Assembly: GCA_021399345.1 (NCBI GenBank)
Contig: JAAFKI010000150.1
Location: 1-42,080 of the forward strand
DNA length: 42,080 nucleotides
Direction of reading: 5' to 3'
From: Candidatus Heimdallarchaeota archaeon
GTDB taxonomy: Archaea; Asgardarchaeota; Heimdallarchaeia; Heimdallarchaeales; Heimdallarchaeaceae
This document shows, in pieces, positions 28,881-33,754 of this stretch. The notes beneath the pieces are model-generated. The model was given only the letters and a program-made list of their open reading frames with translations, did not search any database and was not told where the DNA came from. The translations under genes and the position numbers were made by a program. Numbering within the stretch: position 1 is the stretch's first letter; every line of letters begins with the position of its first letter.

Positions 28881-28974
28881 TGTAATTCACCTATTGGTAT
28901 TTTATATATCTTAAAGATAATAACATCAATGTAAAACCCGTTTATAAAGACTTGTGGTTAGAACAACTTTTAAA

Positions 28975-29490
28975 CTAGGTTTTGCGAAATAAGTTTCCTA
29001 GTTCATGAGCCCATTCCTTGACTTTTTCCAAATTTCTAGTGTCATAACCAAAACTTGGCATCTTTTTCGTTGTTTGCATATACCAAATATGAGGAATTTT
29101 TGCTCTTGGCACTCTTCCACCAAAGGCTTTCATTGAAACTGGTTTTACCTGTGGATACTTCTCTAAAACCTCTTCAAGGAAAACTCGATGTGCTTGATTG
29201 TGAAGTTTTTCTTCTCCAGCGAAACCTGCACAAACAAAAACAGCAACATTCTTGTTAGTAAAATCATTTCTCAGAAATTCTTCAGCACTTTTTCCCCACT
29301 TTCCATGGAAAATGCAACTTCCAATAATTATGTTTTCGTAATCAGAAGAATCAGGAGTAATTTTATTTTCTTCTAACTGATATAGATCAACTTGAAATCC
29401 GTAATCCTTCTCAAGAGTATCTGCAATTACAGAAGCAGCTTCTCTTGTTGCCCCATATAGCGTTTGATAAGAAACTAATACCTTACTCAT
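28975..29490 (-). CDS. Flavodoxin-domain protein (HemG-like)
   Basis: Y.TLYGAT..A, IIIGS.I..GKW, VAVFV, AFGG, DTRN...V.EWA. Confidence 0.87.
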   Translation of the reverse strand: MSKVLVSYQTLYGATREAASVIADTLEKDYGFQVDLYQLEENKITPDSSDYENIIIGSCIFHGKWGKSAEEFLRNDFTNKNVAVFVCAGFAGEEKLHNQAHRVFLEEVLEKYPQVKPVSMKAFGGRVPRAKIPHIWYMQTTKKMPSFGYDTRNLEKVKEWAHELGNLFRKT

Positions 29491-29550
29491 AGAACCACTT
29501 AATAGCTAATTTTACGAAAAAGAGTTTTAACCTTTAGTATTGAACAAAAA

Positions 29551-29608
29551 TGGTGGGGCACGGCGGATTCGAACCACCGACCATCTGGTATCCCACGAAA
29601 ATGGTTCT
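29551..29608 (-). repeat. Duplicated 3' half of the tRNA(CAU) gene (attR-like fragment), extending into the anticodon intron
   Basis: 29551-29596 matches 32705-32750 at 43/46 nt; GGTTCT matches again in register (29603-29608 vs 32757-32762). Confidence 0.93.
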
Positions 29609-29657
29609 TCTTCTCAAGGCATCTCCTCTGTAATTAATTTCAGGCATTTTATTCGCG

Positions 29658-29739
29658 TTTATATATCATTTTAATCATTTAATGTTAAATGAATCTGAAA
29701 CTTTTCATTTTTACAACTTAGAGGAAATCAAGTTTCTTC
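29658..29739 (+). promoter_or_regulatory. Putative promoter, operator and RBS hairpin of the island gene
   Basis: TTTATATA (29658-29665); palindrome TCATTTAA-TG-TTAAATGA (29675-29692); hairpin GAGGAAA-TCAAG-TTTCTTC (29721-29739) abutting the GTG. Confidence 0.5.
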
Positions 29740-32697
29740 GTGGTGATTGAAATTAATCTCAAGGCAAATACACAGAATCCTGTAGATAAACATACCAGAA
29801 TAAAAGAAATCGAAGAAATGAAAAGAGAAGTACAAGAAGTTCTCCAATTTATCAAAAAGACAAAAAGAACGATAGAAAAACTTCAAAAACATAATAAAGT
29901 CAGATTGTTTGAAGGGACAGAGGAGCACTCTGGTCTTGAAACTGTTAACTCAAATGAAATACAAATTATCAGTGTGGAATTTGATAATAACATCTCTTGG
30001 GGTACCCTAGAAAACTTAACAGAAAGTAAATACAACACTTTATCAGATAATGACAAATCCTTTGTAAAGCTTGTGAAATCATTATTCTTTCCTAAAGTGG
30101 TGTCGATTAAAGATCTTCTCAGTGATAAAAGTAGCTTAATGGGTTGGAAAGAACATATCAGAAACCTGAGATCAATAATTGAAACTAAAAAAGGGATTCC
30201 TTTTGGAGAGTATTTGTTCAAAGAAAATCTAAAATTCTCTAAGAAAATCTATGATTCTTATGCAAAAAATAGCCTTTTTGATAAGGATTTTGATGAAGAT
30301 TATAAAAGTAAAACTACACGAGGATTTTTCAAAAAACACGGTTCAGAGATAACTGAAAATATTAGGAAAAGGTATAATTTAACTTTTGAAGAGGCTAGAG
30401 TCTTTACTATTTATCTAGCATGTATGTCTGATTTTGATAAGGTGGTGTTAGGTTTTGATTATAAAACTATGCATGAATTCTTTCAAAATGTTTGGATAAA
30501 AATAAATCATGATCAAGATGAGTTTAGAGGAAAACAACAAATTACAAGTGATTATCAAAAAGTAATTGTTCATTCAGACTTTTCTAGGTTCAAATCCAGT
30601 GTATCTTTAGGTTTCGATTCTTATTTTACTTTACTTAACCACAATAAATTCGAATTATGGTTTTCTGAACAAAAGTGTGGTACAGGTTATTCAATATGTA
30701 AAACTTTCAGAAATATGGGTGGTCAGTTACATAAATCAGTATTTAGTCTAGCTCAAAAACGTACAGGCAATAAGTTTCAAGATCTTCTTCAGAGATTAGG
30801 TTTTACCATTCATCAAAGTATTGATTTTTCTAATTCTTTGTTTAAGCGCTATACCTATTATTATGATGCAAAGGGTAACAATTTCCTGCAAAAAATGAAA
30901 TCAACGAAATATAAGCATGACTTAATATTTGGTTTGGAAAGAAATGGGATTCCTAATGCAAAACATTTAGCACATAAATTAATCAAATCTGCAAAAGATA
31001 ACCATCGTTTGATAGCTTTGATGCAAAATGGTTACACACTAAATGACGACGCGAAAGTGGTCAATCATCTAGATATCACAAATAGAAAAAAGCAACCAAT
31101 TCGTATTATGGGTGAAATATTTTCTTTTAAACCTTTAAAAAATGAAAAAGATGACCATATTATCTCGATTGAAGGTTATTCAGAGAAATTAATTAAGAAG
31201 CTACAGAGAACTCATTCGGTTTTTGATTCGGAATTATACTATCAGTTAAATTCAATTTTCAAGTCTATCTCAATAAGTAGAAATTTTACAATTACAGAGC
31301 TATTATCAACTAACGACTATAGTGAAAATTTGCTTTCAGCTTACAATAAATTACTATTTGAAATTTTTCAATATTTTGTAAATAGTGATAATTTTATTTC
31401 ATTTGAGATACTCAAAGAAGGTAAAACGTTTGTTTGTAGTGAAATTGCTACAGAAGATATTGCAAATGTTAAACTGTGGTTTGAGAAAAACCAAAAGATG
31501 TACTCAGCAATTCCTTATACTATGAATTATATTTGGAAACTGCCTTTTTATGGCAAACTCAAGGAAATAAGTCGAAACAATCCTACAAAATTAAGTAAAT
31601 ACAAGGAACTAGCGTTCAAAAAACTGTTTTCTTATAATGATAAAGAAGTATTAGATTTCCTCAAAGAAATTACTTCTAAAGATTTTTCGGAAAAAGATTT
31701 CAAACAAAAATCAAAGGCAAATCCTGACTACTCTCTTATATTTAATATTCTGTATCTGCTAAAAGGGAATACTAGGTTAAAGCTTCGTAAGAACTTATTT
31801 GAACAGGGGGATACAATTCGGTCTTTGATATTTGTAGATGAGAAAGGTAATCCAATACGAGTATTTGAAAATGACAATGATCTCAAAGAAAGGGAAAATC
31901 CCATCTTGAATTTTAAGATGGATTTCAATGAAATTTTCAGTATAAACAGACTGTTGGATAGAAATATTCTTTCTACTTTCCCTATAGCAATAAAGTCAGG
32001 AAAATCAGTAACAAGAAATTCTGAATTAAAATTTAGATTCTGTAGAGTTGACGGAAAGAGAGCGGGAGAAAAAGGGAAAAAAGCAAGAGAGTTGTATATA
32101 GAAAGAGTACGAGAGAAGTTAGGACATATTGATGAAATAAATGACCTGATTGATATTCTTTATTCAAAACCAGCTATCTCATTCAATCTATTAAGAGGTG
32201 AAAACAGAGAAAGCATGATGAAGTTATTCATATATTTGTTCTTTGAATATTATGAAGTTTGGGAAGAATTTAGTATCTCTATAAGGAATTATTTGAAGAA
32301 AAATCTTAGATTTAAGGAAGTAAATATGGTTTCAAGCAAAAATTTTGTTAATTCAGGTTGGAATATAACATTGAAATCAGTAAAAGAAGATACAGATAAA
32401 AAGTGGGTACTTCATTATTTAGTAAGAAACAATAACTCTAAGGTTATTGAAAGAAAGATTAAGATTTTTCCAGCATTTGTTAATATTATAAATAAAAACA
32501 CCAACAAAGAACATCTTGCAGATATGAACGAAGTTACTCTATTTTGCAACTTCAATCCACTATTTGTAAGTGTTTTGTCCACTTTAGAGAACGAAATTAT
32601 GCCTTTAATTTCAGTGGCGGATAAGAAGGAAATAGATTCAAGAATAAATCCTGTTAGTAAAAATATAACAGAATGGATGGAAAAGGTTTTTGTTTAG
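29740..32697 (+). CDS. Large orphan protein (985 aa) with candidate PD-(D/E)xK nuclease motif
   Basis: Uninterrupted 2958-nt ORF filling the island, K/F/N/I-rich; GFD(293)...E310-Q-K312...Q329. The ORF is solid, the function speculative. Confidence 0.8.
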   Translation: MVIEINLKANTQNPVDKHTRIKEIEEMKREVQEVLQFIKKTKRTIEKLQKHNKVRLFEGTEEHSGLETVNSNEIQIISVEFDNNISWGTLENLTESKYNTLSDNDKSFVKLVKSLFFPKVVSIKDLLSDKSSLMGWKEHIRNLRSIIETKKGIPFGEYLFKENLKFSKKIYDSYAKNSLFDKDFDEDYKSKTTRGFFKKHGSEITENIRKRYNLTFEEARVFTIYLACMSDFDKVVLGFDYKTMHEFFQNVWIKINHDQDEFRGKQQITSDYQKVIVHSDFSRFKSSVSLGFDSYFTLLNHNKFELWFSEQKCGTGYSICKTFRNMGGQLHKSVFSLAQKRTGNKFQDLLQRLGFTIHQSIDFSNSLFKRYTYYYDAKGNNFLQKMKSTKYKHDLIFGLERNGIPNAKHLAHKLIKSAKDNHRLIALMQNGYTLNDDAKVVNHLDITNRKKQPIRIMGEIFSFKPLKNEKDDHIISIEGYSEKLIKKLQRTHSVFDSELYYQLNSIFKSISISRNFTITELLSTNDYSENLLSAYNKLLFEIFQYFVNSDNFISFEILKEGKTFVCSEIATEDIANVKLWFEKNQKMYSAIPYTMNYIWKLPFYGKLKEISRNNPTKLSKYKELAFKKLFSYNDKEVLDFLKEITSKDFSEKDFKQKSKANPDYSLIFNILYLLKGNTRLKLRKNLFEQGDTIRSLIFVDEKGNPIRVFENDNDLKERENPILNFKMDFNEIFSINRLLDRNILSTFPIAIKSGKSVTRNSELKFRFCRVDGKRAGEKGKKARELYIERVREKLGHIDEINDLIDILYSKPAISFNLLRGENRESMMKLFIYLFFEYYEVWEEFSISIRNYLKKNLRFKEVNMVSSKNFVNSGWNITLKSVKEDTDKKWVLHYLVRNNNSKVIERKIKIFPAFVNIINKNTNKEHLADMNEVTLFCNFNPLFVSVLSTLENEIMPLISVADKKEIDSRINPVSKNITEWMEKVFV

Positions 32698-32704
32698 AAA
32701 AATT

Positions 32705-32837
32705 TGGTGGGGCACGGCGGATTTGAACCACCGACCAACTGGTTTCCCACCAGAAAGGTTCTAAGCTATGAGCCAGTCGCCAGTTCGTCAAATGGCACAC
32801 AGCCATTTGACTTCTAACCGAGCTGAGCTAGTGCCCC
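32705..32837 (-). tRNA. tRNA(CAU), probably tRNA-Ile2 (alternatively elongator Met), with two introns
   Basis: Spliced product GGGGCAC-TA-GCTC-AGCTCGGTTA-GA^GC-G-ACTGG-CTCATA^A-CCAGT-TGGTC-GGTGG-TTCAAAT-CCGCC-GTGCCCC-A-CCA (78 nt); introns at 32781-32812 and 32744-32766. Confidence 0.92.
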
Positions 32838-32905: not shown

Positions 32906-33754
32906 TTAGAAATTATTTTTTGATTTCTTTTTTTTAAGCAAGAATGAAGCAATTGTGATTAAACCAAGAATTAGATAATAACCAATATAAGCAATCATTT
33001 CTAACCATGTTGGTTTATCTTGATAACCAAATAGAGCTCTAAGAAATTTTCCCAGTTCATTTGTCTTATCGTTGAGAATTCCACTCATATCCCAAACATG
33101 GTTTTGTAACCAATGCGTTTCAGATCCAAACCAACCAATTTCTTGAAATTCATGAATTCCTTGAGAAAACATACCTGCTGCAACAATAATTAAGACAATA
33201 CTTGTAATTAAAAAAAACGTCCGTAAGTTAATCTTTTTACCAGAATAGAAAATAAGAAAAGCAATTACTAAAGCAACAACTATTCCTAATATTCCTGACC
33301 AGAGAACAATCCAAGGATTATCTTCAGTAGCCCCAATACCAGCAAGAAAAAGAACCGTTTCTACCCCTTCTCTTAGAACAGAGATAAGTGCAAGTGTCAG
33401 TAAACCATATTTTTGCTGTTGTTTTATTGAAATGTCTACCTTTTCTTCAAGTTTCTTCTGAACATCTTTTCCTGTTTTTAGCATCCATATTATCATCCAT
33501 GTCAGCAACAATGAAGCTATTATCATTGCAAAACCTTCAAAGATTTCCTCATAACTTTCAAACCCACCTAAAGCAAATTGAAAGATAACAGCTGTAAGAA
33601 TTGAGAGGACAATACCTGCAATTGTACCTATCCACACTTGTTTCTTTAATTTCCTTTCACCTATTTTTGTAACATAAATAAGTAAAATACCCACTATTAA
33701 TGCGGCTTCTATGGCCTCTCTCAGTGTAATCAGAAAACTTGCTAAACTAAACAA
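32906..33754 (-). CDS. FTR1/EfeU family high-affinity iron permease
   Basis: Two RExxE motifs (REAIE, REGVE), ~7 TM helices, GIHEFQE. Confidence 0.94.
   Translation of the reverse strand: MFSLASFLITLREAIEAALIVGILLIYVTKIGERKLKKQVWIGTIAGIVLSILTAVIFQFALGGFESYEEIFEGFAMIIASLLLTWMIIWMLKTGKDVQKKLEEKVDISIKQQQKYGLLTLALISVLREGVETVLFLAGIGATEDNPWIVLWSGILGIVVALVIAFLIFYSGKKINLRTFFLITSIVLIIVAAGMFSQGIHEFQEIGWFGSETHWLQNHVWDMSGILNDKTNELGKFLRALFGYQDKPTWLEMIAYIGYYLILGLITIASFLLKKKKSKNNF

Follow-up and report, generated by a model that had tools for sequence, protein, structure and literature searches.

An integrase-less islet with one orphan gene at the 3' end of an intron-containing tRNA(CAU) gene in Heimdallarchaeota

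Introduction

Cis-mobilizable elements (CIMEs) and islets without an integrase lie at tRNA attachment (att) sites, where they are left by accretion or by decay, as in ICESt1/ICESt3-type systems. This report concerns an islet of similar outline in an Asgard archaeon: one open reading frame (ORF) of 985 codons, ORF985, enclosed between an intron-containing tRNA(CAU) gene and a displaced copy of that gene's 3' part. The islet lies in a stretch of 42,080 nt (the window), which is the whole of contig C84 in a metagenome-assembled genome (MAG) of Candidatus Heimdallarchaeota (G000; 3.27 Mb, 199 contigs). To our knowledge, the biology of mobile elements in Heimdallarchaeota is barely known.

Archaea capture genes at tRNA genes by way of integrating plasmids and viruses, including those with the 'suicidal' integrases of the SSV type (PMC7253208, PMC8371274). 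At the tRNA-Thr locus of Caldiarchaeum subterraneum, a 1.8-kb multi-copy insert encodes a DNA recombinase, and a 5' fragment of the tRNA gene is displaced (Sugahara et al. 2012, PMC3293823). In Ca. Heimdallarchaeum, the aloposons (homologous to Otus/Ephialtes) carry tandem genes for proteins of 3,000-6,000 aa together with a conserved four-gene MinD/ParA module (Wu et al. 2022, PMC8813620), and HeimM2, from the same archaeon, apparently relies on a homing endonuclease to insert itself beside a tRNA gene (PMC8813620).

An original prediction had read the present islet as integrase-less and as one of three things: a satellite mobilised in trans, a self-mobilising element with an unrecognised enzyme, or a reduced defence islet. 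We consider each of these below, along with the case that there is no element at all.

Results

An insertion behind tRNA(CAU)

The original prediction had noticed the tRNA 3' end repeated, in direct orientation, 3154 bp away (43/46 nt). A repeat search of the window confirms the observation and extends it, for the core of 43/46 nt is contained within a direct repeat of 63 nt at 87% identity (29546-29608 versus 32700-32762, spacing 3154). The repeat holds the 3' part of the second tRNA intron, the full third exon, CCA and about 5 nt of trailer. Searched against the 3.27-Mb genome, it finds its second copy (BLAST E 2.5e-16) and, as the sole further match, the acceptor/T arm of a tRNA-Val. The interval holds, also as predicted, an intact orphan ORF of 985 codons, which is convergent with the tRNA gene and has its stop codon 7 nt from the tRNA CCA end and 2 nt short of the repeat. 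No further credible gene is found in the interval's ORF list, which otherwise offers only short frames antisense to ORF985. The parts of the islet are as follows:

32705..32837, minus strand: tRNA(CAU), elongator type, with exons 32813-32837, 32767-32780 and 32705-32743; attL (left att) side of the islet
32700..32762, minus strand: attL-side copy of the direct repeat, comprising the 3' part of intron 2, exon 3, CCA and 5 nt of trailer
29740..32697, plus strand: ORF985 (P0001), orphan protein of 985 aa, an intact open frame and the sole credible gene of the islet
29609..29739, plus strand: inner arm of the islet (131 nt) and promoter region of ORF985, with a TATA-like TTTATATA at 29658-29665
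29546..29608, minus strand: displaced tRNA fragment on the attR (right att) side (repeat search, BLAST, local alignment)

The block at 29609-29739 is kept upstream of eight ORF985 alleles. In the displaced fragment, exon 3 is that of a different tRNA allele (A43, TTCGAAT T loop), with intron-like sequence before it and, after it, the host trailer toward a flavodoxin gene.

The site without the cassette can be seen in relatives. Twenty congener loci were annotated against the genes of the window, and homologs were sought in 61 related genomes and in metagenome contigs. A backbone, rSAM287 - tRNA(CAU) - IF2B, is common to at least 20 related loci. Five genomes (G004, G008, G005, G022, G014) have clean empty sites, consisting of the bare backbone with 70-130 nt from CCA to IF2B, and G012 and G017 have empty sites with flavodoxin added. 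In G001 the addition to the backbone is a B-box gene. Occupied contexts number at least 14, all at tRNA(CAU), with the stop codon of the ORF 5-10 nt from CCA. A homolog of ORF985 (60-81% identity) is enclosed by CCA and a displaced 3' fragment in G000, G011, G023, G009 (where the locus is divided over two contigs), L059, L061, L064, L068/L069 and L089. In G013, L058, L060, L088 and L090, the homolog abuts the tRNA and the far end is rearranged or unassembled.

The decisive case is that of G023, the layout of which recurs in L089. There, the displaced fragment is followed by the block AAAATTGTTCTAACC...TTTATTAT, which is the very sequence that comes right after the intact tRNA at empty sites and that precedes IF2B in every genome. 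Since the fragment carries the trailer of the empty-site tRNA together with the IF2B promoter, the islet must be a true insertion. Judged from these alignments, then, the interval is a real insertion at the tRNA 3' end with an attL/attR-like duplication, and the attL/attR-like signature claimed at the outset gains support from the clean empty sites. The cassette is an accessory locus, polymorphic for presence and absence, of one Heimdallarchaeota genus. The comparison across related genomes that the prediction had proposed turned up both empty sites and different cargo; the opposite pattern, an ORF syntenic in all relatives with no tRNA fragment beside it, is clearly not what was found.

The repeat shared by tRNA and fragment varies in length, from 65 nt in G000 (by local alignment) to 60 in G011, 50 in L068, 45 in L061 and L059, 39 in G009 and L064, and 24, degenerate, in G023; in none of these eight loci does it reach 5' of the intron site at 37/38. 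Williams reportedly defined sublocation classes of tRNA integrases in 2002, and the segment from 37/38 to the 3' end is said to be typical of anticodon-loop integrases. The footprint matches the one that an integrase-type insertion would leave in the part of a tRNA gene that runs from the anticodon loop to the 3' end.

Perhaps, however, no element was ever involved, and ORF985 is an ordinary fast-evolving accessory gene in a recombination hot spot, with the tRNA fragments as debris of local duplications and rearrangements. The locus is unstable enough: the genes for flavodoxin, FTR1 and the B-box protein are present in some genomes and missing in others, G015 and G003 have the tRNA in inverted orientation, and duplicates of exon 1 (25 nt) stand upstream of the tRNA in G024 and L068. 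The codon usage of ORF985 is native, and it has paralogs at other chromosomal loci. Other cargo is also found behind the tRNA (a photolyase in G003; a luciferase-like oxidoreductase and an ADH in G016, G018 and G020), but at these four loci no displaced tRNA fragment is detectable. Debris would hardly be expected to have such precise boundaries, with the same cassette set between CCA and displaced fragment in differing flank contexts (flavodoxin or IF2B) and the end of ORF985 fixed to the att site in every allele. We consider this explanation quite unlikely.

Decayed and two-gene forms

Occupied sites decay. The copy in G013 is missing its first 110 codons and abuts unrelated DNA (a 912-aa ORF beside it, considered as an ORF985 relative, proved unrelated). 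G015 retains 85 C-terminal codons, and G024 retains about 150 nt of the ORF beside the tRNA, followed by a TnpB-like gene of an insertion sequence. At that locus (L046:8441-10368), a TnpB/Cas12f-like ORF of 518 aa with a TNB domain and an upstream ORF of 124 aa stand in place of most of ORF985.

The description of the islet as a single-gene island is right for G000 but not for some of its relatives. The islets of L064 and L068/L069, bounded like that of G000 by tRNA and fragment, contain a divergent pair of genes, a homolog of ORF985 and a fusion gene:

L068:805-2739, L064:117-1796, also L072, minus strand: gene for a fusion of TcmP, winged helix-turn-helix (wHTH) and radical-SAM domains (TIGR04474 and domain matches)

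The fusion protein (559-644 aa) joins a TcmP domain (TIGR04474, E 1e-45), a wHTH and a radical-SAM domain resembling SplB/PA0069. TcmP, the three-Cys-motif partner, is usually encoded in a two-gene cassette with a separate protein. The N-terminal TcmP domain of the fusion matches the PADLOC candidate PDC-M41A (1.4e-7), and in Sinorhizobium a TcmP gene is listed beside the defence gene Hna (SMa2243 next to SMa2245; PMC12445080). The 131-nt inner arm of G000 is homologous to the divergent intergenic promoter region of the two-gene L068, so the one-gene and two-gene forms differ by loss or gain of the radical-SAM gene; no radical-SAM remnant is detectable at the protein level in the inner arm of G000. 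A remnant of the fusion gene, 132 codons long, lies downstream of IF2B in G008 (L073).

The tRNA gene and its introns

The tRNA(CAU) had been predicted to contain an intron, and it has two: intron 1 (32781-32812) in the D arm, at gene position 25/26, and intron 2 (32744-32766) at the canonical position 37/38. Because of them, ARAGORN makes no call over the unspliced gene at 32705-32837, but with both introns removed it calls a canonical tRNA-Met(cat) cloverleaf of 78 nt. Rfam gives only a weak match to the tmRNA clan over the same interval. The gene has G1-C72, A73 and a U29-A41 pair; G1-C72 and U29-A41 mark it as a CAU tRNA of the elongator type, for Met or Ile2, rather than an initiator. About 20 congeners keep it between rSAM287 and IF2B, and compensatory changes are seen at 27-43 and in the T stem. 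The intact tRNA of G000 has a co-adapted A27-U43 pair, and the exon 3 allele of the displaced fragment (A43, TTCGAAT) is that of the intact tRNAs in G024, G019, G014 and G015, which have U27.

Several further observations concern the introns and rearrangements of this gene. Intron content varies within the genus (loci L035-L054), and G003 has no intron in the D arm. Two sequence types of intron 2 occur that are unrelated to each other, and hosts with flanking genes about 99% identical may differ in type; the displaced fragments of G000 and G011 have the same intron type as the resident tRNA. There is also duplication on the 5' side, where the 25 nt of exon 1, up to the splice site of intron 1, recur without mismatch beside FTR1 (L068:6004-7755, also L069; L046:7546-8064 in G024). 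Between this copy and the intact tRNA lies an orphan ORF of 508 aa in L068 and about 490 nt in G024. The exon-1 and exon-3 duplications both terminate at or near exon-intron junctions. The inversions in G015 (L049:7792-8190) and G003 (L054:3882-7196) take in the tRNA and its 3' cargo, relative to rSAM287 and IF2B.

ORF985 and its family

Pairwise ratios of nonsynonymous to synonymous divergence (dN/dS) in ORF985 lie between 0.09 and 0.30, both over the whole length and in 100-codon windows, and hence the gene is functional. ORF985 is a real protein under purifying selection. Its standing as an orphan was borne out: there is no significant match in Pfam, PADLOC, PHROGs, NCBIfam or the PDB sequences, segment-wise scans at E up to 5 return only sub-threshold noise, and the ESM Atlas holds no usable match. 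An exhaustive phmmer search of 1.84 billion representatives matched six proteins, and a profile search of 5.8 billion sequences matched 13, all of them from Heimdall or from unlabelled metagenomes. The family evidently comprises about 20 proteins and is confined to this lineage. A six-frame search of the 61 genomes, with sister genera that include two single-contig genomes, found no match beyond the genus itself; among these genomes, ORF985 is present as a single copy, at the same site each time and with no second target.

Deep paralogs lie elsewhere. Two, at 25-28% identity, are in conserved synteny next to the gene for pyruvate-phosphate dikinase (PPDK): P0004, of 1065 aa (L057:1674-4871), and an ORF of 1872 aa in G001. 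A third, in G002 (L056:7117-10318), is broken into four frames and sits between rpoA'' and rpS12. Neither tRNA genes nor flanking repeats were found at these loci. Homologs thus sit at the tRNA 3' end in the occupied contexts described above, and the deep paralogs do not. The 1872-aa paralog (L055:9924-15542) has about 940 extra N-terminal residues, without a Pfam match, and both it and the 1065-aa paralog are convergent with the PPDK gene.

In the protein, an N-terminal coiled coil precedes a mixed alpha/beta body, and the C-terminal 135 aa are hypervariable. Ten sequences, with identities as low as 25%, all keep D293, E310 and K312, along with about 100 other invariant columns, and strands are predicted around this D...ExK triad at 294-300 and 303-309, with no family or structure match. 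A conserved stretch resembling H-N-N (aa 422-445) gives a sub-threshold match to HNH_3 (E 0.15). The AF2 models, one of the full length (9-row alignment, pLDDT 45) and one of aa 215-500 (10-row, pLDDT 43), are both unreliable, and a wide fold search with VIA-align returned only generic helical hairpins (Z at most 6.5). A PD-(D/E)xK nuclease fold, which has its D...(D/E)xK triad on a beta-hairpin in an alpha-beta-beta-beta-alpha-beta core, is no more than a lead. PADLOC matches neither ORF985 nor P0004 nor the G001 paralog. Nonetheless we lean, weakly, toward a DNA-acting protein of the conflict or defence type, possibly a nuclease, on weak hints: purifying selection maintains old alleles, the C terminus varies, the triad is invariant, and a TcmP/radical-SAM gene is now and then the partner.

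Old alleles exchanged between close relatives

Hosts that are nearly identical around the islet may carry very different alleles of ORF985:

G000 versus G013: flanking genes dS 0.02-0.25, dN 0.003-0.03; ORF985 dS 0.94, dN 0.15
G000 versus G009: flanking genes dS 0.06-0.44, dN 0.006-0.07; ORF985 dS 0.81 (C part) and 0.35 (N part), dN 0.10-0.17
G000 versus G011: flanking genes dS mostly 0.06-0.23, three at 0.63-0.94, dN 0.004-0.09; ORF985 dS 0.69, dN 0.15

The synonymous divergence of ORF985 is several to 30 times that of most flanking genes. The alleles are mosaics of low-dS and high-dS segments. G000 and L061, for example, have a common promoter and first 100 codons and are deeply divergent beyond. 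The last 135 residues are the most variable (39-54% identity, G000 versus G011). These are old mosaic alleles that have been swapped between closely related hosts.

The edges of the exchanged unit are visible on both sides. Over the stretch that begins at FTR1, takes in exon 1 and ends halfway into intron 1, G000 and G013 share 97-100% nucleotide identity, but from about 32790, within intron 1, identity drops to about 70%, the conserved exon 3 excepted. At the opposite edge, the near-identity of G000, G011 and G009 extends from flavodoxin as far as the fragment's exon 3, up to its first base, past which the three sequences are unrelated. With breakpoints in intron 1 and at the edge of the fragment's exon 3, the exchanged unit includes intron 2 and part of intron 1. 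Such a unit fits homologous recombination on tRNA sequence, whereas it is not predicted by an integrase that crosses over at a fixed place in exon 3 or the anticodon loop.

The search for mobility machinery

The prediction that the insertion is integrase-less holds: Pfam, NCBIfam and PHROGs find no integrase domain in ORF985, no integrase is encoded at tRNA(CAU) in any of about 20 loci, and the five genomes with an intact or N-truncated ORF985 (G000, G011, G013, G009, G023; 81-90% complete) have no PF00589 tyrosine recombinase, not even an Xer-like one. A parent element that bears an integrase and has the same att site was not found in the 61 relatives, IMG/VR or the metagenome collections, though MAGs under-sample mobile elements. 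The metagenome scan yielded three more chromosomal contexts, at the same tRNA. IMG/VR viral contigs contain no relative of ORF985, and CRISPR spacers from the 61 genomes give only short matches to the island DNA at chance level. Three circle-sized contigs with homologs (3151, 3178 and 3599 nt), considered as excised forms, turned out to be chromosomal pieces cut at the tRNA repeat: they still include FTR1 or the tRNA, and their ends do not overlap.

If the islet is a satellite or CIME still mobilised in trans, then its att sites work, and the helper integrase resides on an element missing from the MAG bins. Direct repeats are well kept (39-65 nt) in many lineages; exon 3 of the fragment is identical in G000, G011, G009 and L068 despite the divergence of the adjoining cargo; and deep allele divergence in near-identical hosts implies repeated replacement. 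Tyrosine recombinases, moreover, are sporadic in the genus (13/25 genomes), yet the carrier genomes are without PF00589, the twenty or so loci hold no integrase-bearing element, no viral contig holds a relative, and the contigs of 3151 and 3178 nt that might have been circles are pieces of chromosome. Moreover, near-identical hosts swap intron 2 and half of intron 1 along with the cargo, which a crossover limited to exon 3 or the anticodon loop would not do. With no parent element, helper integrase or second insertion site found in the genomes and collections searched, the satellite of the original prediction is conjecture, and we think it unlikely.

Or perhaps ORF985 is itself the mover, an unrecognised site-specific nuclease or recombinase that targets the tRNA 3' part and moves its own gene and the occasional cargo (TcmP/radical-SAM). 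It is the sole gene common to all variants, and it always lies at the tRNA-proximal edge, which is where the integrase gene of an element is usually found. The five genomes that carry it, intact or N-truncated, have no detected tyrosine recombinase, and HeimM2 offers a precedent in Heimdallarchaeum (PMC8813620). Against this, ORF985 occurs once per genome at a constant site, with no second target, its distant paralogs are away from tRNA genes and unflanked by repeats, and decayed copies are common. Although the D...ExK triad is invariant and the H-N-N-like stretch gives its sub-threshold match to HNH_3, the protein matches no family or structure of nucleases or recombinases, and the AF2 models are unreliable. 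The exchange breakpoints, in tRNA intron 1 and not at a fixed core, favour homologous recombination. Self-mobilisation, one of the options of the original prediction, is unsupported, and we give it little credence; it is equally doubtful that ORF985 founds a new class of tRNA-gene-targeting DNA enzyme (D...ExK), inserting its own gene behind tRNA(CAU) and rebuilding the tRNA 3' part.

Composition and flanking genes

The G+C fraction of the island (0.26-0.32) is below that of its flanks (0.33-0.38). Among the long ORFs of the genome, ORF985 stands at the 1st percentile for G+C (0.291), but it is typical in its G+C at third codon positions (GC3, 67th percentile) and in its synonymous codon usage (75th percentile). 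The proposed check of G+C and codon usage thus gave a split answer, unusual in the first respect and native in the second. Since GC3 and codon usage are typical, the low G+C of ORF985 comes from amino-acid composition and not from a foreign codon dialect, and the cassette has been long resident in the lineage.

The host-side flanks in the window are:

28975..29490, minus strand: flavodoxin gene (Pfam PF12724)
32906..33754, minus strand: FTR1 iron permease gene, upstream of the tRNA (Pfam PF03239)

By the synteny table, both are polymorphic in the genus. Flavodoxin is an insert between the tRNA trailer and the IF2B promoter, the block of which comes after it, and its presence or absence is independent of the islet. 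The hexamer TTGTTC stands on both sides of the flavodoxin gene (28881-29545), possibly as microhomology, possibly by chance. Elsewhere in G000, on contig C2 (1360-1602), are two tandem tRNAs with a bacterial initiator signature (5' CGCGGGG, GGG/CCC anticodon stem), and this contig may be bacterial contamination of the MAG.

Discussion

Probably a captured islet without an integrase

We favour, with somewhat better than even confidence, the view that the locus is a captured, integrase-less islet, CIME-like or decayed from an integrative element. According to this model, an ancestral element would have integrated site-specifically into the intron-2/exon-3 part of the tRNA(CAU) gene, rebuilding the tRNA and displacing the original 3' part to the far end. 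The att homology would include intron sequence because the target gene has an intron at 37/38. What remains of the cassette is a promoter region and ORF985, with a divergent TcmP/radical-SAM gene in some lineages and no recognisable recombinase in any copy. Exchange between hosts would proceed by homologous recombination anchored on the tRNA-derived repeats and the conserved flanks. The lack of a recombinase, the single site, the frequent decay, the native codon usage and the homologous exchange together argue for a passive remnant.

Several points weigh against this model. Because no integrase-bearing relative was found, the founding integration is read from its footprint alone, although MAGs often come without mobile elements and the carrier genomes are 81-90% complete. 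The distant paralogs at non-tRNA loci, in conserved synteny next to PPDK, fit an ordinary fast-evolving cellular gene family as well as they fit cargo. In G011, some flank genes also have high dS (B-box gene 0.94, radical-SAM gene 0.63, g422 0.79), so recombination with divergent lineages is not unique to the islet. Finally, the guess at defence lacks direct support, PADLOC being blank for ORF985 and no fold being usable. The third option of the original prediction, a reduced defence islet, thus survives in part: reduction fits best, given the two-gene and decayed forms, and the gene is under purifying selection, but its role in defence is a guess.

The empty, occupied, expanded and decayed states of this site document the gain, trimming and swapping of accessory genes at one intron-containing tRNA in a Heimdallarchaeota genus. 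The tRNA intron alleles travel with the cargo, which bears on the idea that the integration of elements shapes archaeal tRNA introns and fragments (PMC3293823). The orphan family, with about 20 members that are large, selected, represented by ancient mosaic alleles and occasionally partnered by TcmP/radical-SAM, is a reasonable target for functional work. Were ORF985 self-mobilising after all, which we judge very unlikely, then the prokaryotes most closely related to eukaryotes would host a mobile element pared down to a single gene.

Comparison with known systems

Casposons are recognised by a Cas1-type casposase, terminal inverted repeats and a target duplication of 14-15 bp. The islet has no Cas1 domain and no standout terminal inverted repeats, and its duplication is variable, at 24-65 nt. 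Nor is it an aloposon. Like the aloposons and HeimM2, it belongs to the Heimdall group and has a large orphan gene directly upstream of a tRNA integration site, and the enzyme of HeimM2 is likewise tRNA-adjacent and not an integrase, but ORF985, at 985 aa, stands alone, with no ParA module and, among the 61 genomes, no match outside the genus. The large gene abutting a tRNA is all that is shared.

As in SSV-type capture, the chromosome keeps foreign genes bounded by partial tRNA repeats after the ability to excise has been lost. SSV integration, however, splits the integrase gene into two halves, int(N) and int(C), which overlap the att sites, whereas ORF985 is clear of the repeat and the islet has no detectable integrase fragment; a split integrase of this type was rejected, as neither copy of the repeat is crossed by a reading frame and nothing resembles an integrase. 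With the tRNA-Thr locus of Caldiarchaeum, the islet shares a multi-intron tRNA gene, a displaced fragment a few kb off with an insert in between, and an intron content that is variable among population variants. It differs in being single-copy, in having a 3' fragment and in lacking a recognisable recombinase.

Of the hallmarks of a tRNA-targeting integrative element, the islet has the intact tRNA with a displaced 3' fragment and the empty site, but not the internal integrase. As for known anti-phage defence, no PADLOC model matches ORF985, and only the TcmP domain of its optional partner matches a candidate. A CIME, with att sites on both sides and no recombination or transfer module, describes it better: attL/attR-like direct repeats derived from the tRNA 3' part stand at both ends of the islet, genes for recombination or transfer are absent, the cargo is small, and close relatives are polymorphic for it. 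Unlike a CIME, it is archaeal (Asgard), has no known cognate element with an integrase, includes a tRNA intron in its repeat and carries an orphan cargo restricted to one lineage, and its mobilisation in trans is putative. As matters stand, the islet adds one more to the integrase-less islets at tRNA genes and is not a demonstrated new system. The kind is already known, and what is new is the member, with its Asgard host, its intron-bearing att site and its cargo family of orphan 985-aa proteins.

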